Origin: Bacteroidales bacterium
Lineage (GTDB): Bacteria > Bacteroidota > Bacteroidia > Bacteroidales > VadinHA17
Assembly: GCA_030596125.1 (NCBI GenBank)
Contig: JAUVKT010000001.1
Coordinates: 28,860-92,859, forward strand
Direction: 5' to 3'
Length of the DNA stretch: 64,000 nucleotides
A program made the translations under genes and the position numbers. Under the pieces are notes generated by a model. It did no database searches and had not been told where the DNA came from. It saw only the letters and a list, made by a program, of their open reading frames with translations. Below, piece after piece: positions 6,581-32,701 of this stretch. The stretch's first letter is position 1. Every line of letters begins with the position of its first letter.

Positions 6581-8005
6581 TTGATAACCAGAATATTATC
6601 TGTTTTTATATTTCTTATACTTACCGCCCTCTCCTGTAATCAGGATCCCAGCACTTCAGCCGGTTCAATGATAATTCACCGTGACCTTATACAGTTAAGG
6701 GAACGGGGAAAGATCGTGGCAATAACCGATTTCAATTCTACAAGCTATTTTATTTACAAGGGCGAGCCTATGGGTTTTCAGTATGAGTTGCTCCAGACTT
6801 TTGCCGATTATATTCAGCTTGAACTTGAGATTATAACAGAGAATGATCTTAATGTATCTTTCGAAATGCTCAACAGGGGGGATGCCGATCTGCTGGCATT
6901 TAACCTGTCAATAAACAATGAGCGAAAAGACAAGATTCTCTTTTCAGACCCTATTGGTTATACCAGACAGGTGCTTGTACAGCGCAGGCCCGAAAACTGG
7001 CTTGAAATGACCCGTGATGAACTGGATAAGATTCTGATAAGGAATCAACTTGATCTGGCCGGGAAAACAGTTTATGTTCAGAGTGGTTCATCATTTGCCC
7101 AACGTTTACGAAACCTGCAGGATGAGATAGGCGATTCAATTCACATTGTTGAGGTGCCAATGGAAGTAGAGAAGCTGATAACACTTGTTGCCGAAAAGGA
7201 GATCGATTATACCGTGTGTGATGAGAATGTTGGTCTGGTTAACAGGACCTATTACTTTAATCTCGATGTCGGCACACCAATAAGTTTTCCACAGAATTAT
7301 GCCTGGGCAGTACGAAAAACCGGTTCAGTTGAGATGGTTTCTGCTCTTAATAGCTGGATAAAAACGTTTAAGGGTTCATCACAGTATGCACTGCTGTATG
7401 CTAAATATTTTAAGAATAACCGCTCCAGACGAATAGTTGCAAGTGATTCTTATTCTCTGTTAAGTGGCAGAGTCTCAGAATGGGATACCTATTTTAAACA
7501 ATATAGTGATACTATAGGGTGGGACTGGAGACTGCTTGCGTCACTTGTGGCACAGGAATCCAGGTTTGATCCGGGTGTGACGTCCTGGGCGGGAGCGTAT
7601 GGGTTAATGCAGCTGATGCCTTCCACCGGCTATCTTTTTGGTATTGATGTTACTTCTACGCCTGAAAATAATATCAGGGCCGGAATAAAGTATATCAATT
7701 GGCTGCAGGATATGTTTGAAGATAAAGTGCCGGATGAACAGGAGAGAATGAAATTTATACTCGCTGCCTATAATGTTGGTCCCGGTCATGTACTTGATGC
7801 CAGACAACTGGCAAGAAAAAATGGAAAGGATCCCGAATTGTGGGATGGGAATGTTGCTTATTATCTGTTAAGAAAATCTGATCCTGAGTATTATCGCGAC
7901 CCTGTTGTGGAACATGGATTTTGCAGGGGTGATGAACCGTATAATTATGTTATTGAGATACTTGACAGGTATGAACACTATTCAAATTTTATTCCGGAAG
8001 AATAA
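6581..8005 (+). CDS. mltF: Membrane-bound lytic murein transglycosylase F-like (solute-binding domain + SLT domain)
   Basis: It has a TTG start and a lipoprotein-type signal (…LTALSCNQD). The N-terminal part looks like a type-3 periplasmic binding domain. The C-terminal SLT motif with the catalytic Glu is present (LVAQESRFDP…AGAYGLMQLMPST…AYNVGPGHV). Confidence 0.8.
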   Translation: MITRILSVFIFLILTALSCNQDPSTSAGSMIIHRDLIQLRERGKIVAITDFNSTSYFIYKGEPMGFQYELLQTFADYIQLELEIITENDLNVSFEMLNRGDADLLAFNLSINNERKDKILFSDPIGYTRQVLVQRRPENWLEMTRDELDKILIRNQLDLAGKTVYVQSGSSFAQRLRNLQDEIGDSIHIVEVPMEVEKLITLVAEKEIDYTVCDENVGLVNRTYYFNLDVGTPISFPQNYAWAVRKTGSVEMVSALNSWIKTFKGSSQYALLYAKYFKNNRSRRIVASDSYSLLSGRVSEWDTYFKQYSDTIGWDWRLLASLVAQESRFDPGVTSWAGAYGLMQLMPSTGYLFGIDVTSTPENNIRAGIKYINWLQDMFEDKVPDEQERMKFILAAYNVGPGHVLDARQLARKNGKDPELWDGNVAYYLLRKSDPEYYRDPVVEHGFCRGDEPYNYVIEILDRYEHYSNFIPEE

Positions 8006-8015
8006 TCCCTTTTCC

Positions 8016-8636
8016 TTAATGTCCGCCTGCCTGGTAGATCCAGAAGATTCCAACCAGTACGGCTGCTGAGCTTCCTGCAACCCTGACAGCCAGGAGCAAT
8101 TTCTTCTGATTCCCGGAAGCAACACTTTGAGAGACAAAACCCATTATTACTGAGTATGCTACCATAGTAATAATAGTACCCACACCGAAGCCGATTATGT
8201 AGCTTGCTGCATCTGCCATTGTTGGGAGAGCCAGACTGGGAAGTATGCCTATCAGATGAGAGACCCCGGCCAGGCCATGAATCAAACCAACCCCCAGCGC
8301 TGTCCACGAATCGTTTTTCCCGGTAAAAACATGTTTATGCGGAGTGTGAGAAAAAATCCTGTAAAAAACCCATATACCAATAAGAATCAACAGTATACCT
8401 ACTATTTTTTCACTATAGGATGAGATGATCTCAACAGGAATAAGATCTCTGAAAAAGATAAACAGGGCACCTATCATAAAAACACCTAGTGTATGTCCCA
8501 GTCCCCAGGAAAATCCAATAAGCCAGGATTTTTTCTTTCCTTCAATTGCAAGAGGAGTTACCGCAGCCAGATGATCCGGCCCTGATATAACATGCAGTGA
8601 ACTTGCAGCAAGGCCTGTAAGGAAGTAGATAATCAT
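8016..8636 (-). CDS. Six-TM membrane protein, NicO/UreH-like metal transporter family (tentative)
   Basis: It has hydrophobic 6-TM repeats with His-rich motifs (SLHVISGPDHLAAV, GLGHTLGV, GLIHGLAGVSHL). I moved the start to the internal ATG at 8636 (MIIYFLTGL…). The ORF-track start at 8792 would overlap gatD and adds non-membrane junk sequence. Confidence 0.45.
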   Translation of the reverse strand: MIIYFLTGLAASSLHVISGPDHLAAVTPLAIEGKKKSWLIGFSWGLGHTLGVFMIGALFIFFRDLIPVEIISSYSEKIVGILLILIGIWVFYRIFSHTPHKHVFTGKNDSWTALGVGLIHGLAGVSHLIGILPSLALPTMADAASYIIGFGVGTIITMVAYSVIMGFVSQSVASGNQKKLLLAVRVAGSSAAVLVGIFWIYQAGGH

Positions 8637-8662
8637 TATTCTCAATTTTGCCGAAAGATAGA

Positions 8663-8670
8663 CAAAAATA
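8663..8670 (-). promoter_or_regulatory. TAnnTTTG -7 motif (TATTTTTG on minus strand) before the NicO-like gene
   Basis: The plus strand reads CAAAAATA, 26 nt upstream of the revised ATG at 8636. Confidence 0.4.
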
Positions 8671-8712
8671 TTATCCTGTTGAGTATAGTTGGTTGTTATC
8701 CTGGTGAAAGCT

Positions 8713-10098
8713 CTATTTATGGAATTTACGCACAAAACCTTCGATCTCAGGAACCCCTCCCTGGTATACGAGATACCCGTTATAGGGTTCACGTTCGGTT
8801 ATTTCACTATTTACAGGAGTAAGCATGATTCTTTTAATCTCTTCCGGGTCATCTGTTTGTCCCATAGCCCAGCCAAGCTTAACCCAGGCAACTTCGGGAA
8901 GCATATTAGCAAGGGGTGTAACCCCAAGAGCTATCATATCCCGTCCGGTTTCATACACAAACATATGAACATATCCCCAAATAGTCTGAAGTGTCATAAA
9001 CAGCTGGACCCCTTTATCCGTTGCTCTTTGAAGGGCAGGATATAGCTCTTTGTTGACATGACCCAGGCCGGTGCCAATAATAATAATACCCTTATACCCC
9101 AGATCAACCAGGCTGTCGATAATTTCGGGTTTCATATTGGGATAATAATAGATCATTGTAACCTTTTCGGAGAAGTAAGGAAAGATTTTTACATTTTTAT
9201 CCTTACGCCGGTGATTATACTCTTTCTTAATATGTATGATCCCGTTTTTTGTGACAGTTGCCACAGGAGTGTCTCCGATCGACCTGAATGTTGAGCGATA
9301 TGAACTGTGCATCTTCCTGACCCTGGTACCACGATGTAAAAATCCATATTCATCAGATGTCGGGCCAAACATACAGACAAGAGTCTCAGCAATATCGCCA
9401 TGAGCAGCAGCGTATGAAGCGTGAATCAGATTGAGGGCCGCATCGGATGATGGACGGTCTGAAGATCTTTGTGATCCTACAAGAATTATCGGAACAGGGG
9501 AATCCTGTACCATAAATGAGAGGGCCGCAGCTGTATGGTGCAGAGTATCGGTCCCATGACCGATCATAATTCCATCTATCCCATTTTCAATTTCGTGTCC
9601 GATTGCTTTGGCAAGAGTGATATACTGTTTGGGCCCCATATTTTCACTAAACACGGCAAACAGCTTTTCGGTATCAATATTGCATACATCGGCAAGTTCC
9701 GGTACAGCACCGTAAAGTTCGCCCGGCGAAAATGCGGGGATAACAGCACCTGTACGATAATCGAGTCGTGAGGCTATGGTGCCACCCGTACCAAAAAGTT
9801 TAACAGTAGGTTTATCATCAGAATAAGGGAACTCCTTTTCAGGGATCTTATAGTTTGCTTTCTGATAGCCTGTCTCTTTCATGGAGGTTATGGTGGCTAC
9901 ATCAATTCCTATATTATAGCCTGTCTCTATCTTGAGTACAATATGCAGATCATCATCATTCTCGGCGCGTGGCAAAACGGTTCCGGTAAAAATTCCCCTG
10001 GTAGTATCTATTATAGTCTGCCCCCATACTCTGACATTATATTTTTTCAATATTTCAAGAGCGGCTCCTTTATATCCCTGGAATATATCTTCTGACAT
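8713..10098 (-). CDS. gatD: Glu-tRNA(Gln) amidotransferase subunit D (archaeal-type GatD)
   Basis: 461 aa. An N-terminal GatD-type domain is followed by a type-I asparaginase fold with catalytic motifs (FGTGGTIASRLDYRTGAV and IGHGTDTLHHTAAAL). It starts 5 bp downstream of gatE on the same strand. Confidence 0.85.
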   Translation of the reverse strand: MSEDIFQGYKGAALEILKKYNVRVWGQTIIDTTRGIFTGTVLPRAENDDDLHIVLKIETGYNIGIDVATITSMKETGYQKANYKIPEKEFPYSDDKPTVKLFGTGGTIASRLDYRTGAVIPAFSPGELYGAVPELADVCNIDTEKLFAVFSENMGPKQYITLAKAIGHEIENGIDGIMIGHGTDTLHHTAAALSFMVQDSPVPIILVGSQRSSDRPSSDAALNLIHASYAAAHGDIAETLVCMFGPTSDEYGFLHRGTRVRKMHSSYRSTFRSIGDTPVATVTKNGIIHIKKEYNHRRKDKNVKIFPYFSEKVTMIYYYPNMKPEIIDSLVDLGYKGIIIIGTGLGHVNKELYPALQRATDKGVQLFMTLQTIWGYVHMFVYETGRDMIALGVTPLANMLPEVAWVKLGWAMGQTDDPEEIKRIMLTPVNSEITEREPYNGYLVYQGGVPEIEGFVRKFHK

Positions 10099-10103
10099 AT
10101 CAG

Positions 10104-12086
10104 CTATTTTTTTGTAATTATTTTCTGTTCTATTTGCTTACTTAGCAATGCAAGATCGACATTACCAATTGCCTGCCTTCTTACCTGTCCCATTAACCAG
10201 TTAACTTCAACATCTTTTCCATTTGACAACTTTATATCGAGAAATTTCTTATAAAGAAAATCGAGTGGGGCAAGAAGGTCGTCCATACTTTTCCTTTTGA
10301 AGTTCAGGGTTGTAAGTATCGACTCATACCTCATCTTTGGATGCTCATACAGAATTTTGATCATCGGTCCTGCAATATTGGGATCAAGATCCTCTTCACG
10401 GATGTAGGTAAATAGTTTTCTAATAATATTATAGCTAAAATCTTTATGGGCCTTTTTCTTTCCCTCAATGTTTTTAAATGTCTGAGCCAGGAAGGTGCCG
10501 ATAAATTTGAGATCAAACCTGTTTTTGGCCGATAATTCTTCAATAAGAGGTATCATATTCTTGCTAAGCAGGTACTTAAATGAATCACCGGGGATTCCCC
10601 ATTTTTTCAACTGTGCAAACCTTGCAGATATTAATACCGGCAAATTCTCGCCCAGTTTGTTAATATATTTATTATCCAGGGGAATCGGAAGAGAGTCGGT
10701 GTCGGGATACATTCTGTCGCTGCCTGGAAGTACCCGTTCAAATATTGTTGTCCCATCTTCAAATGATTTTCTGGTCTCCGGAGGGACACCGGCAAAAGCC
10801 ATTATTATTCGTTCCTCTATTGTCTCAATTGCTGTAGGGATATCGTCGGCCGGTCCCCACAGGATCATCTGGGCATCATTGACCGAGGCGGTGAAAAGCT
10901 CAGCAATCATATTCCACTCTTTAGCACTGAGTGATGGATCCAACTCTTCGGAATGGGTCATGTTGGGTTTTTCTATGCAGGCAATCACCTTTAACCTGTT
11001 GGTAAGTTCGTCAGCGAACAGATGGCCCGGTTGGGTAAAATGAGACATTATTCCATTCAGTAGCGGAAGATTCATTGCAATGACCTTGTAACCATTGTCA
11101 AGAGATTCCTTAACAGGCTTGAAAAGCAGCGGGATGTCTGTAAATGTTATCTCCCTGGTTTTTGATTTCCACCTGCTCCCGTTTTTTAGTCTCTCTTTCA
11201 GGATGGTTCGGATCTTAAGGAGTGCATATTGTCTGAAGGCTTCATTATGTGAAAGCTTAGGTATCCAGGAGTTATGAGCAACACCTTTTATTTCAACACG
11301 GCTGCCACCTTCACAACTGACATTTACATCTTCACGACCTGCTCCGATCCCTGTTCTTACTTTCCCGGTACTTCTATTCAGGAACCTTATATATTCGGCA
11401 GCCTCGGCAAGCTCCCAGGGTGTCTCCATATCGGGATATGTGACAGTTTCGATAAGTGGCATACCAAGCCTGTCAGTCTTGAACACACGGGTATGTCCGA
11501 TATCTGAAATTTCCCTGCACGAATCTTCTTCAATACTTAACTGTATAAGTCTTACTTTCTTGTTTTTTAATTCAATCTCTCCTTCAACACCCAGGATGGC
11601 TGTTCTTTGGAAGCCTGTTGGGATACTTCCATCGAGATATTGTTTTCTGGTTATATGTACCTCCCCGACAATGTTAAGTTTCGAAAGAAGTGATATCTCG
11701 AGCGCTATTCCGAGTGCCTCTTTATCGATCGGGAATGGCGGTGTATCATCCACTTCGTAGGTACATGCATTTTCATTATTTATGCGATAAACAATCTCCT
11801 TTTTTGTTTTAAATTCCATCAGAGCTGTTCCGTCATACTCGCCAAGTTCGCTGAGTGTAGGGCGCATATGTCTGATTACTTCTGCATTATAATCATCATG
11901 ATCATGATAAATTCCGGCCGGGCATCTGCAAAAAAGTTTGCCTTTTGTTTTTAACTGCTGGTGGACTTCAAGTCCGGATTTAAAACCAATTCTCTTATAA
12001 TCGTCTGAAGTGGCTTTTTTAATATCGACATACCCGATACTTTTCATTGTAACAGAGTAGTTCTTTTTTGCTTCAATTTTATTCAT
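10104..12086 (-). CDS. gatE: Glu-tRNA(Gln) amidotransferase subunit E (archaeal-type GatE)
   Basis: 660 aa. The N-terminus is GatB/E-family (IGFKSGLEVHQQL…KLFCRCPA). It has a large inserted domain and a helical C-terminal tail domain. It is paired with gatD. Confidence 0.85.
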   Translation of the reverse strand: MNKIEAKKNYSVTMKSIGYVDIKKATSDDYKRIGFKSGLEVHQQLKTKGKLFCRCPAGIYHDHDDYNAEVIRHMRPTLSELGEYDGTALMEFKTKKEIVYRINNENACTYEVDDTPPFPIDKEALGIALEISLLSKLNIVGEVHITRKQYLDGSIPTGFQRTAILGVEGEIELKNKKVRLIQLSIEEDSCREISDIGHTRVFKTDRLGMPLIETVTYPDMETPWELAEAAEYIRFLNRSTGKVRTGIGAGREDVNVSCEGGSRVEIKGVAHNSWIPKLSHNEAFRQYALLKIRTILKERLKNGSRWKSKTREITFTDIPLLFKPVKESLDNGYKVIAMNLPLLNGIMSHFTQPGHLFADELTNRLKVIACIEKPNMTHSEELDPSLSAKEWNMIAELFTASVNDAQMILWGPADDIPTAIETIEERIIMAFAGVPPETRKSFEDGTTIFERVLPGSDRMYPDTDSLPIPLDNKYINKLGENLPVLISARFAQLKKWGIPGDSFKYLLSKNMIPLIEELSAKNRFDLKFIGTFLAQTFKNIEGKKKAHKDFSYNIIRKLFTYIREEDLDPNIAGPMIKILYEHPKMRYESILTTLNFKRKSMDDLLAPLDFLYKKFLDIKLSNGKDVEVNWLMGQVRRQAIGNVDLALLSKQIEQKIITKK

Positions 12087-12315
12087 CCTGTCGTCTTTGT
12101 AACTGCCAAATTATTCAAGAATAACTAAATATCAAATATTAGTGACCGGGGATGAAATAGAATAAATTAATGATTACAATTCTTATAGTACAATTTGTAT
12201 ATATTATTCAGACAGGAATGCCTGATATGATTAAAATGAAGCCAAAGTGTTGAAAAAAATATTTTGAAATATTTTTAAGAATAATGTTATAAAGCAGAAA
12301 GAGCCTCAAAGAAGA

Positions 12316-13560
12316 TTAATCGAATTTTATTGCTTTTACCGGGGTTATCCGCGATATCAGTTTCGAAGGAATAACCAGCATTACAACAATAACAGCCATT
12401 GAGCCTGCATTAAGCAACAGAATATGAAGGATATCCAGGTTGATCGGAACAGTTGTCAGATAGTAGGATGAAGGGTTCAGACTTATAAATTCAAAATGTT
12501 TCTGAAGGAGGGCGATGGTTATCCCCGTAAGGTTACCCCAGAGCAGTCCTTTTCCAATAAGGTACATCGATTGGTACATAAAGACTGTCCTGATAAGATT
12601 GTCTTCGGACCCCAGCGCTTTTAATATTCCGATCATATTTGTTTTTTCCAGGATCAGGATCAGAAGACCTGAGATCATATTAAAGCCGGCTACAAGGAGC
12701 ATTAATACAAGGATAATAATAACATTGGTATCCTGGAAATTGAGCCAGTCAAAGATCTGTGGATATTTAATCCTTATGTTGGTCACCTTTAACTGTTGCT
12801 GGTCTTCCGACACTTCGTAGCCTATAGCATCTCTTACAACAAAGGTCATGAAATCGATCTCGTTAAACCTGTCGATCAAAATCTCAAAACCGCTTACCTG
12901 GTCGTTTTCCCATCCGTTTAGCCTGCGAATCTGATTGATATCACATATTACGAAGATCTTATCCATCTCCTCGATACTTGTTACATATATTCCCTTAACA
13001 GTGAATCTCCTCATACGTGGGGGGTCCTGAACAAAATACATGGCAAACTCATCATTCAGTTTCAATCCAAGCATTTCTGACACTTTTCCTGATATCAGGA
13101 CAGATGAGGAGCGAATTGAATCACTGAGTGATAATACATCTCCTTCAACAAGGTTTTTACTGAAAAAGCTCCAGTCGTAATCTGTGCCAACACCTTTAAG
13201 TACAACACCCTGTATGTTATTTTCAATCTTTATTATGCCCGCCTTGGTAGCAAATACCTGGATATTAGTGAATCCTTTTATTTTATCAAGTTTTTCCGTA
13301 AAATCATGGTTAGATGAAATAGGTTCTGTTTCATAGGAGTAGTTTGAATCAAAATTCAGCACCTGGATATGACCACCAAAACCAACAATTTTATTCCTGA
13401 TCTCATTTTTGAAACCGGTAAGGATCGAGAGAGCCAGGATCATAACTGCCAGTCCGAGGGCGATACCTATGATGGCAATTGTATTAATAGGTTTTGAGAA
13501 TGAAGTTCCTTTGCTTCTCTCCCTGATCAGTCGTTTTGATATAAATAAGCCTGTCTTCAC
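12316..13560 (-). CDS. LolC/LolE-type ABC transporter permease (FtsX family)
   Basis: 414 aa. An N-terminal TM is followed by a large periplasmic domain and a C-terminal FtsX-type 3-TM bundle (…ILKALGSEDNLIRTVF…). Confidence 0.8.
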   Translation of the reverse strand: MKTGLFISKRLIRERSKGTSFSKPINTIAIIGIALGLAVMILALSILTGFKNEIRNKIVGFGGHIQVLNFDSNYSYETEPISSNHDFTEKLDKIKGFTNIQVFATKAGIIKIENNIQGVVLKGVGTDYDWSFFSKNLVEGDVLSLSDSIRSSSVLISGKVSEMLGLKLNDEFAMYFVQDPPRMRRFTVKGIYVTSIEEMDKIFVICDINQIRRLNGWENDQVSGFEILIDRFNEIDFMTFVVRDAIGYEVSEDQQQLKVTNIRIKYPQIFDWLNFQDTNVIIILVLMLLVAGFNMISGLLILILEKTNMIGILKALGSEDNLIRTVFMYQSMYLIGKGLLWGNLTGITIALLQKHFEFISLNPSSYYLTTVPINLDILHILLLNAGSMAVIVVMLVIPSKLISRITPVKAIKFD

Positions 13561-13660
13561 AAATTTGGTATAGAGTGGATAAAAATAGTAATTAATAATT
13601 AGTTTCTTTCACTAACTTTAACCTGTAAATATTGGAAGATTGCCAACTGCTTTGCCCTTC

Positions 13661-13696
13661 CGAAGCTTGAAACGAAGTGGAGAGCGAAGGAGGGCC
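13661..13696. repeat. 3 x 12-bp degenerate tandem repeat (CGAAG + 7 nt)
   Basis: The units are CGAAGCTTGAAA, CGAAGTGGAGAG and CGAAGGAGGGCC. The array is flanked by GCCAACTGC at 13642-13650 and 13694-13702, and followed by ACTGCCGACTGA x2 (13698-13709 and 13712-13723). Confidence 0.85.
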
Positions 13697-13742
13697 AACT
13701 GCCGACTGAGGACTGCCGACTGACTTAATAGATTACATAAGT

Positions 13743-14930
13743 ATGATAAAGAAACTTTTTTTACTGCCTGTGCTGGTTCTTTTGCTCACTGCCTGTGAAG
13801 GGAAGAACCCTCCAATAATTATTCCGGGGGCTGTTCAGATGGACCTGTACCTTCCTGTGCTGGAAGGGAGATCTGTAGCTGTGGTAGCTAACCATACAAG
13901 CATAATTAATGAAAGGCACCTGGTTGATACACTTATTTCAAGAGGAGTTAATGTTACCATGATATTCAGCCCCGAACATGGATTCAGAGGTAATGCAGAT
14001 GCCGGAAGTGAGATTATTGATGGCAGGGACCGTATTACGGGCATTAAAATAGTCAGTCTGTATGGCAGCAAGAAAAAGCCGGCTGACAGTGATCTCGAAG
14101 GCGTTGATATTGTAATTTTCGATATTCAGGATGTAGGTGTCAGATTTTATACATATATATCTACAATGCAGTATGTAATGGAGTCGTGTGCAGGGAATAA
14201 CATTCCCCTTGTTGTTCTTGACAGGCCAAACCCCAACGGGTTTTATGTCGACGGACCGGTACTGGACAGTGCTTTCAGATCATTTGTCGGGATGCAGCAG
14301 ATCCCGGTCGTACATGGCATGACAGTGGGGGAATATGCTTTGATGCTTAATGGTGAGGGCTTGCTTGAAGGAGGGATTACCTGTAATACTGAGGTTGTCA
14401 GATGCAAAGGATATAATCATAATTACTTCTATACGGTCCCGGTGGGGCCATCTCCTAACCTTCCCAATCAGAATTCAATATATCTGTACCCTTCACTTTG
14501 TTTCTTTGAGGGCACTCCTGTTTCCTGCGGAAGGGGAACCGAATCACCTTTTCAGCTCTTTGGTCATCCCGATCTGCCCGACACCGGTTTTTCATTTACT
14601 CCTGAACCATCCAGGGGGGCAGCAAACCCAAAACTGAGTGGCCAGAAATGCTATGGTACGAACCTTACTAATGCCGGCAAAAATGGCATTGTGCCACAAC
14701 CTTCACTTAACCTTAATTGGATAATTGGAGCGTATAATGATTTTCCCGATAAGGAGATATTTTTTACGGATTACTTTAATACTCTGGCCGGACAGTCGCT
14801 GTTAAGAAAGCAGATAGAATCGGGCTTGGCGCCTGATGAGATAAAAGAATCATGGAAGCCTGCTATTGCAGAATTTATGAAAATCAGAAAGAAGTATCTT
14901 CTTTATGATGATTTTGATGAAATATTATGA
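13743..14930 (+). CDS. DUF1343 family protein (exo-beta-N-acetylmuramidase NamZ-like)
   Basis: It has a lipoprotein signal (LLLTACEG). The pattern is DUF1343-like (VAVVANHTS…SPEHGFRG…DIQDVGVRFYTYISTM…VLDRPNP). The family is recalled from motif pattern only. Confidence 0.7.
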   Translation: MIKKLFLLPVLVLLLTACEGKNPPIIIPGAVQMDLYLPVLEGRSVAVVANHTSIINERHLVDTLISRGVNVTMIFSPEHGFRGNADAGSEIIDGRDRITGIKIVSLYGSKKKPADSDLEGVDIVIFDIQDVGVRFYTYISTMQYVMESCAGNNIPLVVLDRPNPNGFYVDGPVLDSAFRSFVGMQQIPVVHGMTVGEYALMLNGEGLLEGGITCNTEVVRCKGYNHNYFYTVPVGPSPNLPNQNSIYLYPSLCFFEGTPVSCGRGTESPFQLFGHPDLPDTGFSFTPEPSRGAANPKLSGQKCYGTNLTNAGKNGIVPQPSLNLNWIIGAYNDFPDKEIFFTDYFNTLAGQSLLRKQIESGLAPDEIKESWKPAIAEFMKIRKKYLLYDDFDEIL

Positions 14931-16127
14931 GTCAACTCTTCCCGGATACACTTTAAGCGCTTCGGCAAGAGTCTCCATAGCATTCATAAGATCATTAATA
15001 TTCAGTACGTAAGCAATCCTTACCTCATTGTTTCCCTTACCGGGTGTTGAATAAAACCCTGAGGCCGGGGCAACCATGACAGTCTGCTTTTTATACTCAA
15101 ACTCTTCCAGTATCCATTGTGCAAATCTGTCGGCATCATCCACCGGAAGCCTGGCCACTGTATAGAAAGCACCTTTTGGCTTAGGGCTATAGACCCCCGG
15201 GATCCTGTTTAGCGCTTCAACCATAAAGTCGCGGCGTGCAATATACTCATCATAAACCTTAGTAAAATATTCGGGAGGTGTATCGATAGAAGCTTCTCCT
15301 GCTATTTGTCCAAGACCGGGAGGACTTAGCCTGGCCTGTGCAAACTTGAGGGCTGTACTGATAACCTCTTTGTTTTTTGAAATAAGAGCCCCGATCCTTA
15401 TACCGCATTCGCTGTACCTTTTGGAAACAGAATCCAGCAAGACAACATTCTGTTCAATTCCTTTAAGAAACATTGCAGAAAAATGTTTTTCACCATCATA
15501 GCAGAATTCACGGTAAACCTCATCAGAAAAAAGATAAAGATCATATTTCTTTACAATCTCACTCAGTTGCCTTAACTCCTCTTCCGAATAGAGATACCCG
15601 GTAGGATTATTCGGGTTACAGATAATTATTCCTTTTGTTTTATCACTGATCTTCTTTTCGATCTCTTCAACCGGAGGAAGGGCAAAATCATTTTCTATGT
15701 ATGAAGTTACCGGAACAATATTTACTCCCGCAGTAGTAGCAAAACCATTATAATTCGCGTAGAAGGGCTCAGGAGCTATAACTTCTTCGCCCGGGTTCAG
15801 GCATGTCATAAATGCAAAAAGCACTGCTTCCGACCCACCCGTGGTTATTAAAAGCTCAGTATGGTCAATATCTATTCCGTTTTCTACGTAATATCCGGCA
15901 AGCTTTTTCCTGTATGACTCATTTCCTGCAGAATGAGAGTAGGCCAGAACTTTTTCATCCAGGTTTCTTATTGCATTAAGAGCTACATCAGGAGTTGGTA
16001 TATCGGGTTGTCCGATATTAAGGTGATAAACTTTATGTCCTTTTCTCTTTGCCTCTTCAGCATAAGGGACAAGTTTTCTGATTGGGGATGCAGGCATTGC
16101 CCTGCCTTTATCTGATATCTGTGGCAT
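14925..16127 (-). CDS. Class I/II PLP-dependent aminotransferase (aspartate aminotransferase-like)
   Basis: 400 aa with NIGQPD, NPNNPTG and the PLP-lysine motif SVSKRYSECGIRIG. Confidence 0.85.
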   Translation of the reverse strand: MPQISDKGRAMPASPIRKLVPYAEEAKRKGHKVYHLNIGQPDIPTPDVALNAIRNLDEKVLAYSHSAGNESYRKKLAGYYVENGIDIDHTELLITTGGSEAVLFAFMTCLNPGEEVIAPEPFYANYNGFATTAGVNIVPVTSYIENDFALPPVEEIEKKISDKTKGIIICNPNNPTGYLYSEEELRQLSEIVKKYDLYLFSDEVYREFCYDGEKHFSAMFLKGIEQNVVLLDSVSKRYSECGIRIGALISKNKEVISTALKFAQARLSPPGLGQIAGEASIDTPPEYFTKVYDEYIARRDFMVEALNRIPGVYSPKPKGAFYTVARLPVDDADRFAQWILEEFEYKKQTVMVAPASGFYSTPGKGNNEVRIAYVLNINDLMNAMETLAEALKVYPGRVDS

Positions 16128-20500: not shown

Positions 20501-20602
20501 TTAATGTCAACCTCTTTACTCCCTGCTCCCTACTCTCTACTTTTTCTCCCTCTCCGTTTTATGTCAGATGTTCTTCAACATTCCACTCTTTAAACTTTAT
20601 AT

Positions 20603-20610
20603 TATATTTG
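20603..20610 (+). promoter_or_regulatory. TAnnTTTG -7 motif (TATATTTG) before the glnA-like gene
   Basis: Exact match, 23 nt upstream of ATG 20634. The 10-mer ATTATATTTG is shared with the HK promoter at 24626-24635. Confidence 0.5.
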
Positions 20611-20633
20611 CATTCTCTAAAAAAGATAAGACC

Positions 20634-22145
20634 ATGCAAATGAATAACGGTGAAATTCTAATGAACCCTAATGAATTGGTACAGTTCCTTAAAAAGCCTG
20701 CAACAAGCTTCACAAAGGGTGATTTGATAAGGTTTATTGAAGCCAGGGGGATAGGGATGTTGAATTTCAGGTATGTAGCTGAAGATGGTAAGTTAAAAGC
20801 ATTAAATTTTGTTCTTTCGAGCCGGGAGCATCTTGAACAGATCCTGTCAACAGGGGAGAGAGTAGACGGATCAAGCCTCTTCTCTTTTGTGAAAGCCGGA
20901 TCAAGTGATCTGTATGTAATTCCAAGGTTCAGAACAGCTTTTTTAAATCCTTTCACTGATAAACCAACCCTTGAAATATTATGCTCTTTTTACGATTTCA
21001 ATGGAAATCCGCTGGAGAGCGCCCCTGAAAATATTCTTCGGAAAGCTTATACTATTTTTAAAAATGAGACAGGTTTGAAGATGAAAGCCCTGGGTGAACT
21101 GGAGTATTATGTAAGATCTTTCAGGGATGATCTCTATCCGCTGGCAGATCAGAAAGGTTATCATCAGACAAAACCTTTTGCCAAATTTGAGGATCTTCGT
21201 ATTGAAGCACTATCACTCTGTGCAAATGCAGGATGTAAGATAAAGTATGGCCATTCTGAGGTGGGAAGTTTTACCAGCGAAGGAGAAGATTTTGAGCAGC
21301 ATGAGATTGAATTTCTACCGGTTGAGGTAGAAGAGGCTGTTGAGCAACTGATAATTGCCAAGTGGATTGTGAGGATGCTCAGTTATGAGTATGGTGTTGA
21401 AGTTAGTTTTGCACCTAAAATAACTGTTGGGAAAGCAGGAAGTGGTGTACATATTCATATGTTGCTTGAAGAAGATGGTAAGAATATTATGACGGACGGG
21501 AAGGATATAAGTGATATGGCGAAAAAAATGATTGCCGGAATACTGGACCTTTCGAAATCTCTTACAGCTTTTGGCAATACAATACCCACCTCGTATCTCC
21601 GGCTTGTACCTCACCAGGAAGCTCCGACAAATATCTGTTGGGGAGACAGGAACAGGTCTGTACTGGTGCGGGTACCTCTTGGATGGATGGGTGTCACTGA
21701 TATGTTGTCTGACGCTAATCCTGAGGATGATTCCGAAAAAATTCCTCAAAACAGTAAGCAAACTGTTGAGTTCAGGGCTCCCGACGGATCTGCCGATCTT
21801 TATCTGCTGATGGCCGGACTGGTTGTGGCTACCAGACATGGTCTGAAAATGGATAACTCACTAACCAGGGCTGAAAACCTGTATGTGTCAGTTAATATTT
21901 TCAGAGATGAAAACAAGGGTCAGCTTGAACGCCTTGATTCCTTGCCGGCCTCCTGTTTTGAGTCTGCGGTCGAACTTGAGAAACAAAGAGAATACTTTGA
22001 AAAAGATAACATCTTTCCTGAAGGAACCATTGATAACATAATTCAGAATCTCAAAGCTTATAATGATAAAGGCCTTAGCGAAAAGTTATATGGTAAAGAA
22101 GATGAAATTGCCAAACTGGTAAACCAATTCCTGCATTGCGGTTAA
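20634..22145 (+). CDS. glnA: Glutamine synthetase family protein (about 500-aa form)
   Basis: It has GS beta-grasp and catalytic-domain motifs (…KYGHSEVG…QHEIEF…, GSGVHIHM, NRSVLVRVP, VEFRAPDGSADLYL). I set the start at ATG 20634, 23 nt after a -7 promoter motif. The ORF-track start at 20568 lies inside promoter and low-complexity DNA. Confidence 0.8.
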   Translation: MQMNNGEILMNPNELVQFLKKPATSFTKGDLIRFIEARGIGMLNFRYVAEDGKLKALNFVLSSREHLEQILSTGERVDGSSLFSFVKAGSSDLYVIPRFRTAFLNPFTDKPTLEILCSFYDFNGNPLESAPENILRKAYTIFKNETGLKMKALGELEYYVRSFRDDLYPLADQKGYHQTKPFAKFEDLRIEALSLCANAGCKIKYGHSEVGSFTSEGEDFEQHEIEFLPVEVEEAVEQLIIAKWIVRMLSYEYGVEVSFAPKITVGKAGSGVHIHMLLEEDGKNIMTDGKDISDMAKKMIAGILDLSKSLTAFGNTIPTSYLRLVPHQEAPTNICWGDRNRSVLVRVPLGWMGVTDMLSDANPEDDSEKIPQNSKQTVEFRAPDGSADLYLLMAGLVVATRHGLKMDNSLTRAENLYVSVNIFRDENKGQLERLDSLPASCFESAVELEKQREYFEKDNIFPEGTIDNIIQNLKAYNDKGLSEKLYGKEDEIAKLVNQFLHCG

Positions 22146-28552: not shown

Positions 28553-31500
28553 ATGAAACTGACCGGGCAGCGAAATATATTAATCCTTTTTATCTGCTTT
28601 ATACAGTTGTTGTTGATCCCTGCTAAAAGCTCCGGATCACCACAGAGTATAAATGATGTTATTAATATTTATGGCAAGGTAACTACCGTAAATATCGATA
28701 ATGTTATACTTGATAATGTAACCGGTTTTGCACCTGGAGATACTACTCTTCTTATCCAGATGAAGGGAGGAGTGATCGACACAAATGTGGTTGCTACTAC
28801 TCAGTTTGGTTATCCTGTCGCATATGCCGGCAATACAGGTCATTATGAGTTTATTATAATAGACAATATTAACGTTGGTGCAAAAACTGTAACATTCAGA
28901 AATAATATTATTGGCACCTACGACCCGGAGGGTTTTGTTCAGCTTGTAAAAGTACCTTCGTATCATGATGTTTCTGTTGATGGAACACTTACCTGTGAAC
29001 CATGGGACAGTATTACGGGTACAGGTGGTGTTCTTGCCCTTATCTCAAAGCGACGGGTAGTGCTTAATGCCAATATTGATGTTTCAGGAAAAGGTTTTAT
29101 GGGTGGCGACAGTTCTGTTATTGCCGGATTGTGTCCAACTGATGATCCCGATCGTCTCGACAAGCTCTATTATCACAAAGACTCAACCCTGGCTGGATTT
29201 AAAGGTGAGGGGCTGGCAAGCCATATACAGGGTGGTGATAAACTTTTCATCGAGTTGTATGCTCGTGGGAAAAAATATATTTATACCGGAGGGGGTGGAG
29301 GTAACGGACAATTCTCGGGTGGCGGAGGTGGTGCCAGTTATAGCAGTGGTGGGAAAGGAGCAAAAGGTGATTGTGATTATCTTACTGCTGAAGGGTTTGG
29401 TGGCGAAGGTCTGGAACCAGGCCCTGCAACCTATAAGTTTGTGATCATGGGTGGAGGCGGCGGTGCTTCGGGATATATTACCGGTACCGGATCAAGTGGT
29501 GGTAACGGGGGCGGAATAGTGTTTATTCTTACCGATACTATTATTGGTAACGGATACTCAATAATAGCTGATGGTGAATCAGTGGTAACGGTTGCTGCAG
29601 GAGAAGGCGGTGCAGGCGGAGGTGGTGCGGCAGGCGCTATTGTTATTTCAGCCAATCAATATGCCTCATCTGATCTTACCCTTTCAGCAAACGGAGGGAA
29701 TGGTGGTAATACAGAGAATATTTTCGGATCCGGTGGCGGAGGCAGCGGGGGCCTTGTATATGCAAGTACCGATCTTTCATTAGAGCCAACTCTGACAATT
29801 TCATTTTCAGGAGGGCCTAAAGGCAGGATAAACTACCCGCCTGGAACTCCTCTGGGTTCTGATGGGAATGACGGGGAGGACCTCTTTGACCTTAAAATGC
29901 TTCTTAATGGTTTTCTATTTAACTCTATTGTCTCTGAAGTAACAAGTACTCTTACCGACTCGATATGTTTCGGGGAGATACCTCCTGTTATTAAGGGAAC
30001 CGACCCTGTGGGGGGGACAACTCCTTATACCTACAGGTGGGAGAGAAGCGATGATAATAGTACATGGATTCTTTATCCGGGTTCAGGCAGCACTAAAGAT
30101 CTGACACCCGATATACCTGAAACAGATACTGTATGGTTCAGAAGAGTGGTCACAGATGTTAGTATGCCTACTCCAATTTCAGATACAAGCAAGGCTGTAA
30201 TAATAATGGTTCAGCCATTGATTACCGGTAACCTTATAGGCTATGATACGATAATTTGTGCCGGACAGGATCCTGTGCCGCTTGTTGCAGCTAACAGTGG
30301 TCCGGGCGGAGGAAACTTGCTGTTTACCTATCAATGGATTGATTCAACCTCAGTGACTGACTGGCTCCCCTCAATGGGGGATAACACCGGTGATGCTTAT
30401 GATCCGGCAGCGCTTACATCATCAGTATATTATAAAAGAGTAACAACATCGGGAAGATGTGTTGATACCACCAGTTATGTTACAATTTCTGTTTTGCCCC
30501 TTCTTGCAGATAATACGATATCTGCCGATCAGCTGATCTGTGAAGATCATCTGTTCACAAACCTGGCAGGATCCGATCCGACAGGAGCAGATGGTGCGGG
30601 AACATATCTGTATGAATGGATCAGCAGTGTCGATGGGAGCAGCTGGGCTATTGCTGAAGGTACAATTGACGAGAAAAATTATGATCCTGATGAAGGTTCA
30701 ACGGATTTTCCGGGAGACCAGTATTTCATGAGGATTGTGCGCTCCGGGCATCTTGATTGTTGCGTTGATACATCTGCCCATGTTCTGTTAACAATGTTAT
30801 CACTTATATCAAATAATGTAATATCAGCCGATCAGGATATTTGCGAAGGTGATGTGCCCGCCCCTTTTACCGGGGGTGACCCGGGTGGTGGCGACGGCGG
30901 AACTTATACCTATATATGGGAAGACAGTACACGGATATCTGCATGGAGCCTGATTGCAGGAGCAGACCTGCGTGACTATGCACCCGGGGCACTTGCTGAT
31001 ACCACATGGTACAGAAGAGTAATTCTGTCATCTGCCTGTGACGATACAAGTAATGTTATTGTAGTAAATGTACATCCCTCTATAATAAATAATAGTATAA
31101 CAACTCTTGCGGGTGCTGTTGATACTATAATCTGTTCAACGGCTGTGCCAAATCAGCTTATTGGATCCCTGCCTGGCGGTGGTACCGGTATTTACTCTTA
31201 TGAATGGATTGTTAGTACAGATATGACCACATGGGTTACAGCGGGAGGTGTAAGTAACGTTGTCGATTATAGCCCGGGTTCGTTAACAGAGACCTCCTAC
31301 TTTAAGAGAGTGGTCTCCTCAGGAGAGTGTTCAACAGAGAGTAATATAATCACGGTAACGGTACTTCCTCTTATAGGAAACAATACTATCTCTCCTGCCC
31401 AGACAGTCTGTTATAATACAATTCCATCCCAGCTTACAGGTTCTCTCCCAACCGGTGGAGATAATACATATACCTATTTATGGGAGGAGAGTAATGATAA

Positions 31501-32701
31501 TGTAAGCTGGATCCCGGCAACAGAAATTAATAACCTTCAGAACTACCAACCGGGCATTCTTATAGTTCCTGTTTACTATAAACGAACAGTAACATCCGGA
31601 CTTTCTGATTGTTGCCAGGATACTTCCACGGAATTGCTGTTAGGGATCTATTCGTTGCCTACAGGAGTAATTGTTGTTGCAAAGGATACATCATGTGCAG
31701 GAGAAGAGGTTTCTGTCGCTATGACCCTAACCGGAGCAAATCCCTGGGATATAGTTTTAAATGATGGTGTAAATGATCATACCTTCCAGGCTACCTCATC
31801 AAATTATGATTTCAAGGATAATCCTGTTACCCCTTTTGATTATATCTACCAGTTTGTTTCAATTACTGATGCAAATGGATGTGTTGCAACAAGCATGACA
31901 GGGTCACATGAACATAAGGTATTTGAGATACCTGTCTCTGATGCCGGACCGGATGATGAGACATGCGGACTTGATTATACCCTTACAGCTATTCCAAGTG
32001 TAGGTTCCGGCTTTTGGATAAGTAACGAGGCGACTCTTACTGCTGCTGCCGATATGAGCAATAGCTCGAATGATGTAACTGTTGATACTTACGGCAGTTA
32101 CACTTTCTGGTGGAAAGAGACAAACTGGCAATGCACTGATTCTGCTTCGGTAGATATTACATTCTGGGAGGCTCCGTCACCGGCTGATGCGGGTTCTGAT
32201 ACTCTGTTGATGCCATACACTTATGAGTATCTCCTTGAAGGAATCGATCCGGCAATAGGAGTTGGTACATGGCTCGTGATCCAGAGTGATGGATCGCCGG
32301 TCTTCAGCGACAGTAACAGTGCCACAGCGCTTGTTACAATCCTGGGTGACGGAGAAAATATACTTAAATGGGTAGTTGAAAACGGAGTATGTCCGGTTGA
32401 AGAGGATATGTTAACAATAAATGTCGGGACTATTGTTATCCATTCCGGATTTTCACCAAATGGTGACGGATTAAATGACTATTTTGTAATCAATGGAATA
32501 GATAATACTGAGAATGAGTTGGTGATTACGGATATGTCCGGTTTAATTGTATATAAAATTACCAATTACAAAAACGAGTGGGACGGTTTAGATATGTATG
32601 GGAATTATCTGCCTGATGGCACATACTTCTATTTCCTGAAAGTATTATCTGAGCCAAAGAATAATTTTAAAGGGTTCATAATTATAAAAAGGAATTTTTG
32701 A
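28553..32701 (+). CDS. Giant secreted surface protein with T9SS type-B C-terminal sorting domain
   Basis: 1382 aa with a signal peptide. It has a poly-glycine region (GGGGGNGQFSGGGGGAS… GGAGGGGAAG… GSGGGGSGG) and six tandem ~90-aa Cys-containing repeats. The C-terminal domain (FSPNGDGLNDYFVINGI…GTYFYFLKV…) matches the gliding-motility/CHU_C type-B CTD (TIGR04131-like, from recollection). Confidence 0.85.
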   Translation: MKLTGQRNILILFICFIQLLLIPAKSSGSPQSINDVINIYGKVTTVNIDNVILDNVTGFAPGDTTLLIQMKGGVIDTNVVATTQFGYPVAYAGNTGHYEFIIIDNINVGAKTVTFRNNIIGTYDPEGFVQLVKVPSYHDVSVDGTLTCEPWDSITGTGGVLALISKRRVVLNANIDVSGKGFMGGDSSVIAGLCPTDDPDRLDKLYYHKDSTLAGFKGEGLASHIQGGDKLFIELYARGKKYIYTGGGGGNGQFSGGGGGASYSSGGKGAKGDCDYLTAEGFGGEGLEPGPATYKFVIMGGGGGASGYITGTGSSGGNGGGIVFILTDTIIGNGYSIIADGESVVTVAAGEGGAGGGGAAGAIVISANQYASSDLTLSANGGNGGNTENIFGSGGGGSGGLVYASTDLSLEPTLTISFSGGPKGRINYPPGTPLGSDGNDGEDLFDLKMLLNGFLFNSIVSEVTSTLTDSICFGEIPPVIKGTDPVGGTTPYTYRWERSDDNSTWILYPGSGSTKDLTPDIPETDTVWFRRVVTDVSMPTPISDTSKAVIIMVQPLITGNLIGYDTIICAGQDPVPLVAANSGPGGGNLLFTYQWIDSTSVTDWLPSMGDNTGDAYDPAALTSSVYYKRVTTSGRCVDTTSYVTISVLPLLADNTISADQLICEDHLFTNLAGSDPTGADGAGTYLYEWISSVDGSSWAIAEGTIDEKNYDPDEGSTDFPGDQYFMRIVRSGHLDCCVDTSAHVLLTMLSLISNNVISADQDICEGDVPAPFTGGDPGGGDGGTYTYIWEDSTRISAWSLIAGADLRDYAPGALADTTWYRRVILSSACDDTSNVIVVNVHPSIINNSITTLAGAVDTIICSTAVPNQLIGSLPGGGTGIYSYEWIVSTDMTTWVTAGGVSNVVDYSPGSLTETSYFKRVVSSGECSTESNIITVTVLPLIGNNTISPAQTVCYNTIPSQLTGSLPTGGDNTYTYLWEESNDNVSWIPATEINNLQNYQPGILIVPVYYKRTVTSGLSDCCQDTSTELLLGIYSLPTGVIVVAKDTSCAGEEVSVAMTLTGANPWDIVLNDGVNDHTFQATSSNYDFKDNPVTPFDYIYQFVSITDANGCVATSMTGSHEHKVFEIPVSDAGPDDETCGLDYTLTAIPSVGSGFWISNEATLTAAADMSNSSNDVTVDTYGSYTFWWKETNWQCTDSASVDITFWEAPSPADAGSDTLLMPYTYEYLLEGIDPAIGVGTWLVIQSDGSPVFSDSNSATALVTILGDGENILKWVVENGVCPVEEDMLTINVGTIVIHSGFSPNGDGLNDYFVINGIDNTENELVITDMSGLIVYKITNYKNEWDGLDMYGNYLPDGTYFYFLKVLSEPKNNFKGFIIIKRNF

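Follow-up and report, generated by a model that had tools for sequence, protein, structure and literature searches.

GatDE, the two-subunit Glu-tRNA(Gln) amidotransferase (Glu-AdT), was called exclusively archaeal, or an archaeal signature protein, in papers of 2008 (PMC2330236), 2009 (PMC2811023) and 2021 (PMC8007984), and two works of 2022 still hold it to be exclusively archaeal (PMC8762117, PMC9499178). Why does a bacterial chromosome carry the genes for both subunits? The stretch of DNA analysed here (the window) comprises 64,000 nucleotides (nt) of a Bacteroidales bacterium of the lineage VadinHA17 (assembly GCA_030596125.1, contig JAUVKT010000001.1, positions 28,860 to 92,859). On its minus strand gatE (10104..12086; 660 amino acids, ATG start) encodes subunit E, the tRNA-binding kinase/transamidase, and gatD (8713..10098; 461 amino acids, ATG start, TAG stop codon at 8715-8713) encodes subunit D, the asparaginase-fold glutaminase. 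The spacer from the gatE stop to the gatD start is 5 nt long (10099..10103), which implies co-transcription and probably coupled translation. We consider it likely, at a probability of about three in four, that this gatE-gatD operon encodes a functional GatDE-type Glu-AdT, vertically inherited, in a multi-phylum bacterial family that stems from an Asgard-like donor.

The original prediction, an earlier reading of this sequence, had described two minus-strand open reading frames (ORFs) 5 nt apart with motifs of GatD and GatE, and its coordinates and motifs all proved correct. It had further claimed a true GatD and GatE rather than an asparaginase or a GatB paralogue. GatD scores 490.3 bits against NCBIfam TIGR02153 (E 3.5e-147, cut-off 324) and 489.5 bits against NF003217 (cut-off 310). 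GatE scores 411.6 bits against TIGR00134 (cut-off 319.55) and, by a narrow margin, 465.2 bits against NF003107 (cut-off 456). The stand-alone asparaginase equivalogs (type II asparaginase, AnsA and AnsB) stay below their own cut-offs for GatD, and the best GatB equivalog model reaches 120.8 bits on GatE against a cut-off of 338. Alignments with the archaeal GatDE structures 2D6F and 1ZQ1 run end to end for both subunits (GatE to 2d6f_C at E 5.6e-83 and to 1zq1_C at E 3.2e-79; GatD to 2d6f_A at E 3.6e-113). A mis-identified asparaginase or GatB paralogue is ruled out by the equivalog scores, these alignments and the fold search below, and on this evidence we take the pair to be a true GatD and GatE.

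GatD begins with a GatD_N domain (Pfam, 40.9 bits at residues 36-70; gathering threshold (GA) 25.7), followed by an Asparaginase (186 bits) and an Asparaginase_C domain (103 bits). The active site of this subunit has a Thr nucleophile plus a Thr-Lys-Asp triad (PMC2330236). In the window protein the catalytic residues are T107 (9778-9780), T183-D184 (9547-9552) and K262 (9313-9315; all minus strand), within the motifs GTGGTIAS (residue 103), HGTDT (residue 181) and RKMH, which align with the same motifs of 2d6f_A and 1zq1_A. T104, T107, T183, D184 and K262 are invariant among 72 Bacteroidales orthologues. An alignment of 10 GatD sequences delimits a C-terminal extension of ~20 residues (REPxxGYxxLQG...), at residues ~438-461 of the window protein (8716..8787, minus strand; REPYNGYLVYQGGVPEIEGFVRKFHK), that is common to bacterial and Asgard GatD and is lacking in the crystallised proteins of M. 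thermautotrophicus and P. abyssi. The extension is ruled out as a bacteria-specific trait, the same extension being carried by Asgard GatD.

GatE carries the motifs GLEVHQQL...LFCRCP and a cradle/catalytic domain at residues 37-475 (10662..11978, minus strand; Pfam GatB_N, 147.7 bits). Its Mg2+ ligands are H42 (11961-11963), E186 (11529-11531) and E213 (11448-11450; minus strand), which by alignment are the equivalents of His15, Glu157 and Glu184 of M. thermautotrophicus GatE, Mg2+ ligands shown by experiment to be essential for activity (PMC2330236). These three residues are invariant in 12 Bacteroidales, 34 other bacterial and 85 archaeal-type GatE sequences and in 3 GatB sequences. Of the 59 columns with a conservation of 95% or more across 119 GatE sequences from outside the Bacteroidales, the window protein keeps every one. 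An AlphaFold2 model built on a 55-sequence alignment has a mean predicted local distance difference test score (pLDDT) of 92.2 and a predicted template modelling score (pTM) of 0.88. Its best fold match in the PDB is P. abyssi GatE (1zq1_C, E 2.9e-46, target-normalised template modelling score (TM) 0.85), followed by M. thermautotrophicus GatE (2d6f, target-normalised TM 0.81), and all GatB chains rank lower. The NCBIfam alignment extends to residue 656 of 660.

The GatB_N match is split by a segment of ~120 residues, such that residues 37-475 cover 277 profile positions. Within it lies the GatE-specific AspRS/GAD-like insertion domain (residues 326-408; 10863..11111, minus strand), whose sequence has diverged to 16.4 bits against Pfam GAD (E 0.011), below threshold. 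AlphaFold2 models this domain with high confidence and it aligns with archaeal GatE at a target-normalised TM of 0.85; weak AspRS fold matches of the model are explained by the same domain. The insertion domain is recognised by structure and only marginally by sequence. At the other end of the protein, residues 1-28 (12003-12086, minus strand) extend ~28 residues beyond the archaeal crystal proteins; helix 6-17 is predicted there (pLDDT 81-96), and conservation of the extension among Bacteroidales is 0.65.

How widespread is the pair? A protein search with GatE returned at least 120 clusters at 67-89% identity, many of them already named GatE by NCBI or JGI (Bacteroidales, Bacteroidia and Bacteroidota metagenome-assembled genomes (MAGs)). 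We then scanned one genome per GTDB species and found a relative encoded in 117 species, for 80 of which the locus (~20 kb) was kept. All 80 loci come from Bacteroidota MAGs, at 59-73% identity, one being a complete chromosome of 4.27 Mb, and the carriers are uncultured, mostly Bacteroidales lineages. Bacteroidales orthologues of the window pair are 59-89% identical. gatD adjoins gatE in 74 of the 80 loci, and most exceptions stop at a contig edge. lolE lies upstream of gatE in 58/80 loci, and the order glnA-x-valS-aminotransferase-x-lolE-gatE-gatD-mltF-porin-ftsZ-ftsA-ftsQ-murC recurs in ~25-35 of the 80. In ~20 loci gatE-gatD sits in one of three other recurrent bacterial contexts: (1) LptD/amidase/MlaD/OstA, (2) PBP2/RodA/saccharopine dehydrogenase, and (3) Dus and a TRAM-domain methyltransferase.

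The two genes have diverged together with their neighbors. Distances of GatE and GatD correlate with those of ValS, FtsA, FtsZ, LolE, GlnA and the aminotransferase at Mantel r 0.86-0.97 (p = 0.001), as tightly as the housekeeping proteins correlate with one another (r 0.89-0.93), and GatD correlates with GatE at r 0.92. GatD is strongly constrained, with a mean p-distance of 0.146 as compared to 0.273 for ValS in the same species, and is also more constrained than FtsA. There is no confirmed disrupted gatDE copy among the 80 loci, in one of which (L075) the gatE match is shortened. Conserved synteny, co-divergence and strong constraint together point to vertical inheritance and not to an island: gatE-gatD bears the marks of an old, vertically inherited and functionally important pair, and keeps its place next to the division and cell wall (dcw) cluster throughout a large uncultured Bacteroidales radiation.

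This disposes of one part of the original prediction, which had offered [quoted passage not shown]: the lineage is supported (at least 117 Bacteroidota species and further phyla), and the acquisition in this genome is contradicted by synteny across dozens of species, co-divergence with the flanking proteins and ameliorated codon usage. A recent acquisition or genomic island, or an archaeal contig mis-binned into a bacterial MAG, would suit a family classically regarded as archaeal. We give it next to no chance, for gatDE shares its contig with lolE on one side and mltF/ftsZ on the other, free of mobile-element genes, its GC content at third codon positions (GC3) and codon usage are typical of the window, and the same insertion point is found in dozens of species, with co-divergence of the neighbors. 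GC3 is 0.390 for GatD (z 0.00) and 0.404 for GatE (z 0.57) with a window mean of 0.390 (sd 0.025), and the codon-usage distance of each to the rest of the window is below that of the average gene. As the original prediction had it, there is no compositional break; codon usage at gatDE is fully ameliorated. Recent horizontal transfer was rejected on the matching GC, GC3 and codon usage, the lack of mobile genes, and the conserved synteny and co-divergence. Searches of plasmids and phages found no such GatE; the only matches were GatB genes and, on a haloarchaeal megaplasmid, a single GatE.

A few of the 80 loci depart from the common arrangement. In L075 (10001-13623) the gatE match extends no further than query residue 583 and gatD begins ~490 nt beyond its usual start, which may reflect a frameshift, an assembly error or a disrupted tail domain. 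In L059 a 415-residue M28 peptidase with a C-terminal sorting domain of the type IX secretion system (T9SS) lies between gatE and gatD (11990-13237), the sole case of an intact ORF splitting the pair. In L034 (~7700-15700), L043 and L060, Dus, a D-loop-modifying enzyme, is encoded upstream of gatE-gatD and a TRAM-domain uracil-5 RNA methyltransferase downstream. ThiI, the tRNA s4U8 synthase, is the upstream neighbor in a locus of another phylum (Calditrichia, L086). Such a tRNA-modification neighborhood may be a coincidence.

Beyond the Bacteroidota, we searched exhaustively for GatE over 1.84 billion cluster representatives and found that the matches fall into three tiers: the Bacteroidales clade (representative 63% identical), ~45 full-length proteins at 42-53%, and classical GatE at 30-38%. 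The middle tier carries the names Deltaproteobacteria MAG, CSSED10-310, Ca. Edwardsbacteria, Calditrichia, KSB1, Krumholzibacteria, Aminicenantes, Latescibacteria, Desulfaltia and Clostridiales MAG. On five of its contigs the neighbors include sigma-54 activators, resistance-nodulation-division (RND) efflux proteins, HPr kinase/phosphotransferase system (PTS) proteins, SecA, DnaA, PNPase and ThiI. By names and genomic contexts, the middle tier is bacterial. In all, six contigs from outside the Bacteroidota place the genes in an unmistakably bacterial setting, and gatD follows gatE on all six; the two genes overlap by 4-8 nt in four of five loci (L081, L084, L085 and L086) and are 7 nt apart in the fifth (L083). 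The bacterial GatDE lineage therefore spans at least 117 Bacteroidota species and many other phyla, mostly of the Fibrobacterota-Chlorobiota-Bacteroidota (FCB) group.

Where does this lineage come from? We built a GatB-rooted neighbor-joining tree of 134 sequences (396 columns, 200 bootstraps), the sample being biased to query-like sequences. The Bacteroidales clade was recovered in 200/200 bootstraps and the whole bacterial clade was monophyletic in 155/200. The bacterial clade is usually nested among archaeal GatE, with Heimdallarchaeota, Hodarchaeales, Thorarchaeota and Odinarchaeota as its labelled neighbors, and in the point estimate its sister group includes Hodarchaeales. The best-scoring archaeal GatE for the window query is from Heimdallarchaeota, and the closest archaeal GatD in the alignment of 10 is likewise Heimdall, at 50% identity vs 44-45%. 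The GatD C-terminal extension common to bacteria and Asgard is an independent character in agreement with this. These data suggest that the nearest archaeal relatives of bacterial GatDE are Asgard; the affinity is only suggestive because it comes from a distance tree with a distant outgroup and a query-biased sample. The most likely history is one ancient transfer out of an Asgard-like archaeon, from which the family arose, with later spread through the FCB group and other bacteria.

An origin without archaea would place GatDE in the last bacterial common ancestor or in LUCA (last universal common ancestor), with loss from most bacteria and survival in the FCB group and a few phyla. GatDE in LUCA was proposed by Sheppard and Soll, as cited in PMC9499178, and the bacterial clade is deep, diverse and monophyletic in the 155 replicates noted above. 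A root between bacteria and archaea, which would support such a history, appeared in only 16/200 bootstraps, while in most the root fell inside archaeal GatE. The derived C-terminal extension of GatD is common to bacteria and Asgard specifically, and among archaeal proteins those of Heimdall are clearly the nearest, for GatE and GatD alike. The bacterial distribution is also patchy, the Bacteroidota carriers being uncultured and their nearest outgroup being Ca. Edwardsbacteria, not other Bacteroidota. We therefore regard an ancient bacterial origin as improbable.

The position of Ca. Edwardsbacteria also bears on how the Bacteroidales came by the genes. Among labelled sequences, the one from Ca. 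Edwardsbacteria (P0123, whose sister P0122 carries no label) is the closest outgroup of the Bacteroidales GatE clade, which suggests that Bacteroidales obtained gatDE from another FCB-group bacterium, with vertical descent thereafter.

Three of the sequences collected have unusual layouts. P0123 itself (MCU0607514.1, 573 residues, annotated "hypothetical protein") matches query residues 4-387 at 64% identity and is either a truncated or a mis-called gene. P0159 (943 residues, bacterial-type tier) is an apparent GatE-GatD fusion with a GatB_N cradle (24-304), GatD_N (511-548), Asparaginase and Asparaginase_C domains and no YqeY tail; it could be a real single-chain GatDE without the D-loop-binding tail, or a frameshift or assembly artefact. 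P0184 (781 residues, archaeal-type tier) has an N-terminal extension of ~165 residues that matches the nucleotide-kinase-like domains AAA_17 and AAA_18, ahead of a complete GatE in which both the GAD and the YqeY domain are strong.

What would the bacterial enzyme recognise? Two tRNA-recognition elements have been described, a first-base-pair site and a tail motif (PMC2811023). At the first site GatB has a 3-10 turn that reads U1-A72, in place of which GatE has a short basic loop (PMC2811023). The window loop (S240-G247, STGKVRTG) is basic and of the GatE type: STGKVRTGIG is equal in length to the archaeal TGKVKRGLG, and the GatB type, GVSKADM(E)KG, is longer. The second element lies in the putative YqeY-like tail, the predicted D-loop-binding module and least conserved part of GatE (residues 531-656; 10119..10496, minus strand). 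It scores 19.1 bits against Pfam GatB_Yqey (GA 27), and in the model it is a helical C-terminal domain of the right length (pLDDT 85-94); crystal structures of GatE do not resolve this part of the chain. The archaeal tail motif GxxAxG, implicated in the rejection of Asp-tRNA(Asn) (PMC2811023), reads GMGAMG in both archaeal crystal proteins, is replaced by GKDVEVN in the window protein and is not conserved across the bacterial clade. Over 81 Bacteroidales sequences, column conservation is 0.8-0.92 in the core and 0.46-0.59 in the linker (301-330) and the tail (511-660). Pfam scores for tail and insertion are 24.5 and 19.6 bits in a GatE from another bacterial phylum (P0124) and 88.4 and 42.2 bits in a Heimdallarchaeota GatE (P0157). 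The tRNA-contacting modules have thus been remodelled with the chemistry kept, a pattern that fits adaptation to a bacterial tRNA-Gln.

By homology, the enzyme would be an alpha2-beta2 heterodimer of GatD and GatE (GatD2-GatE2). GatE would bind Glu-tRNA(Gln) made by a non-discriminating GluRS and phosphorylate the glutamate gamma-carboxyl, with ATP and Mg2+ held by H42, E186 and E213. Ammonia would finally be channelled to GatE to give Gln-tRNA(Gln). We infer the activity in vivo, the supply of Glu-tRNA(Gln), and from which donor and in which direction the transfer went. That purifying selection is strong, with no confirmed disrupted copy in the 80 loci, argues that a substrate exists in the cells, and hence that there is a non-discriminating GluRS. 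It is plausible, on this argument, that the carrier lineages make Gln-tRNA(Gln) mainly or solely through GatDE. No GlnRS, GluRS or second GatB-like gene was found by tblastn in the ~20 kb per genome, with an approximate E. coli GlnRS query and GatE and GatD probes. Likewise, the 64-kb window holds no tRNA gene, and none of the 80 Bacteroidota loci has a tRNA-Gln near gatDE.

Several points weigh against a functional, vertically inherited Glu-AdT of Asgard-like origin. The rooted phylogeny was built from distances over 396 columns, its outgroup is remote, and which group is the exact sister of the bacteria varies between bootstraps. Every bacterial carrier seen is a MAG. Archaeal GatDE reads A1-U72 and bacterial tRNA-Gln normally has U1-A72 (PMC2330236). 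The tRNA-facing tail and insertion domains are strongly diverged (Pfam 19/16 bits vs 88/42 in Heimdall GatE), and with the loss of GxxAxG the substrate specificity may differ. Cultured Bacteroidetes can carry GlnRS, AsnRS and GatCAB together (PMC4206432), so GatDE could be redundant.

The last two points would fit a host that uses GlnRS and/or GatCAB, with GatDE serving as a back-up, acting on another mischarged tRNA such as Asp-tRNA(Asn), or carrying out a conditional tRNA-dependent amino-acid synthesis. The frequent co-occurrence of GlnRS, AsnRS and GatCAB in cultured Bacteroidetes (PMC4206432) speaks for this, as do the tail and insertion, the fastest-evolving parts of GatE. A GatD more conserved than ValS and FtsA, with no confirmed disrupted copy in 80 loci, would be unusual if the enzyme were a back-up that the cell can do without; every catalytic residue and the first-base-pair loop remain of the GatE type; and modelling in PMC2330236 suggests that the GatE insertion domain clashes with the non-discriminating AspRS. 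We thus think a redundant or re-purposed GatDE unlikely and retain a functional Glu-AdT as the preferred reading. A bolder version of it, which we put forward tentatively and think has rather less than even odds, is that an Asgard-type GatDE entered a large set of uncultured bacteria, which now rely on it alone for Gln-tRNA(Gln), GatCAB and/or GlnRS having been replaced. The set would comprise this Bacteroidales radiation, Ca. Edwardsbacteria, Calditrichota, KSB1, Latescibacterota, Krumholzibacteriota, Aminicenantes and some Desulfobacterota. The GatE tail and insertion would then record a re-tuning from A1-U72 to U1-A72, or else the hosts would carry an archaeal-type tRNA-Gln.

The finding alters the known taxonomic distribution of an enzyme and adds no new biochemistry. 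GatDE does not occur exclusively in Archaea; the description is one of taxonomic distribution and has no effect on family membership. The original prediction had taken GatDE as an archaeal signature: it is classically so described, but it is encoded on bacterial contigs of at least 117 Bacteroidota species and of other phyla. Automatic annotation by PGAP and IMG already labels such bacterial genes GatD and GatE, so their existence is on record. A full-text literature search found no paper describing bacterial GatDE, most subscription journals being outside its scope. The original prediction had allowed that widespread, vertically inherited homologues in related Bacteroidota would make the pair known or ordinary; such homologues exist and are already labelled, and the window pair is an ordinary member of its clade and of a known kind of enzyme. 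What deserves note is the unremarked bacterial clade, with its Asgard affinity and diverged tRNA-binding modules.

Textbooks and reviews treat GatDE as an archaeal signature protein, a statement that the bacterial clade contradicts. The supposed co-evolution of GatDE with the unusual archaeal tRNA-Gln has been invoked to explain why no archaeon has acquired GlnRS. A deep, vertically inherited bacterial clade indicates that the enzyme can work, or was adapted to work, in bacterial translation. It amounts to a natural experiment on shifts of tRNA identity after inter-domain transfer, and its breadth and age make co-evolution with tRNA-Gln identity directly testable. On the suggestive Asgard link, it also adds a core translation enzyme to transfers from Asgard archaea to bacteria. 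For practical purposes, the absence of gatCAB and glnS from an FCB-group MAG should not lead a metabolic reconstruction to count Gln-tRNA synthesis as missing, and GatD and GatE are unsuitable as archaeal markers in binning or contamination checks.

The surroundings of the pair in the window are those of an ordinary Bacteroidota chromosome, judging from profile searches. The neighbors include murC, ftsQ-like, ftsA and ftsZ genes (the end of the dcw cluster), a Porin_10 protein, an mltF-like gene, a lolE-like gene and an aminotransferase, and the window also carries valS, glnA, nadC, T9SS PorP/SprF, a CHU_C cargo protein, der, era, secDF and mutS. Window ORFs of at least 150 residues include no transposase, integrase or phage gene, in agreement with the housekeeping context free of mobile elements that had been claimed for the pair, and the 64-kb window has no Rfam match. 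The lolE-like lipoprotein-release permease (12316..13560, minus strand; TIGR02212 family match) is the conserved upstream neighbor of gatE and not part of the enzyme. Between the two genes lie 229 AT-rich nt (12087..12315, minus strand), the presumed promoter region. A sigma-70 consensus scan returned 18 sites vs 16.7 expected from shuffles, a consensus that does not cover Bacteroidota promoters.

Downstream of gatD lies a gene for a DsbD_2-like multi-pass membrane protein (8016..8636, minus strand; ~206 residues, MIIYFLTGL...), with a borderline score of 24.6 bits against Pfam DsbD_2 (GA 24.9). The ORF list starts it at a GTG (258 residues, 8016-8792), overlapping the gatD 3' end by 80 nt; the ATG near 8636 is most likely the true start. 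This neighbor is confined to the three closest relatives (L001-L003). glnA, encoding glutamine synthetase (525 residues, 20568-22145, plus strand), lies ~8.5 kb from gatDE, and 28 loci have it in the same conserved block. As the source of glutamine, the amide donor, it is functionally suggestive, and linkage over this distance is probably incidental. The highest GC of the window (0.47 at 29001-31000, vs ~0.40) falls inside a 1382-residue CHU_C/T9SS cargo gene (28553-32701). Since GC3 taken over the full gene is low (0.342), repeats or the amino-acid make-up of the protein are a more probable cause of the rise than a foreign origin.

How does the bacterial enzyme compare with those already known? 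Like the archaeal GatDE of M. thermautotrophicus (2D6F) and P. abyssi (1ZQ1), it has two subunits, with GatD_N and asparaginase N and C domains in GatD and the order cradle, AspRS-like insertion, helical region and putative YqeY-like tail in GatE. It also shares their Mg2+ ligands, the Thr/Thr-Asp-Lys catalytic residues and the short basic first-base-pair loop. It differs in that GatE is only 31-34% identical and GatD 44-45%, Pfam thresholds are not reached by the tail and insertion, the tail GxxAxG is not conserved, and both the GatD C-terminal extension (~20 residues) and the GatE N-terminal extension (~28 residues) are additional. The host is bacterial, and its tRNA-Gln is presumably U1-A72 and not the archaeal A1-U72. 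The closest archaeal systems are the Asgard GatDE of Heimdallarchaeota (TET29438.1) and Hodarchaeales (MHA2245723.1), with 38% identity (411 bits) for GatE and 50% for GatD. Asgard GatD has the same C-terminal extension, and in Hodarchaeales gatE and gatD overlap in the gene order of the bacteria. In contrast to the window protein, Asgard GatE retains a strong YqeY domain (88 bits), a GAD domain (42 bits) and the tail motif G..A...LMG, and its genes lie in an archaeal context with a TFIIB-type zinc ribbon.

The usual bacterial enzyme for the step from Glu-tRNA(Gln) to Gln-tRNA(Gln) is GatCAB. Its GatB subunit (S. aureus 3IP4, A. aeolicus 3H0L) is paralogous to GatE and shares its cradle fold, Mg2+ ligands and chemistry. 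GatB lacks the insertion domain that the window GatE carries, and window GatE lacks both the 3-10 turn reading U1-A72 and the Lys-rich tail motif KxGKxK of GatB. The glutaminase of GatCAB is the amidase GatA, with GatC, whereas that of the window is the asparaginase-fold GatD. The bacterial GatDE already labelled in databases (Bacteroidales, Calditrichia, KSB1, Latescibacteria and Aminicenantes) belong to the same clade and show no substantive difference, and those of Bacteroidales are orthologues in the same chromosomal position as the window pair.

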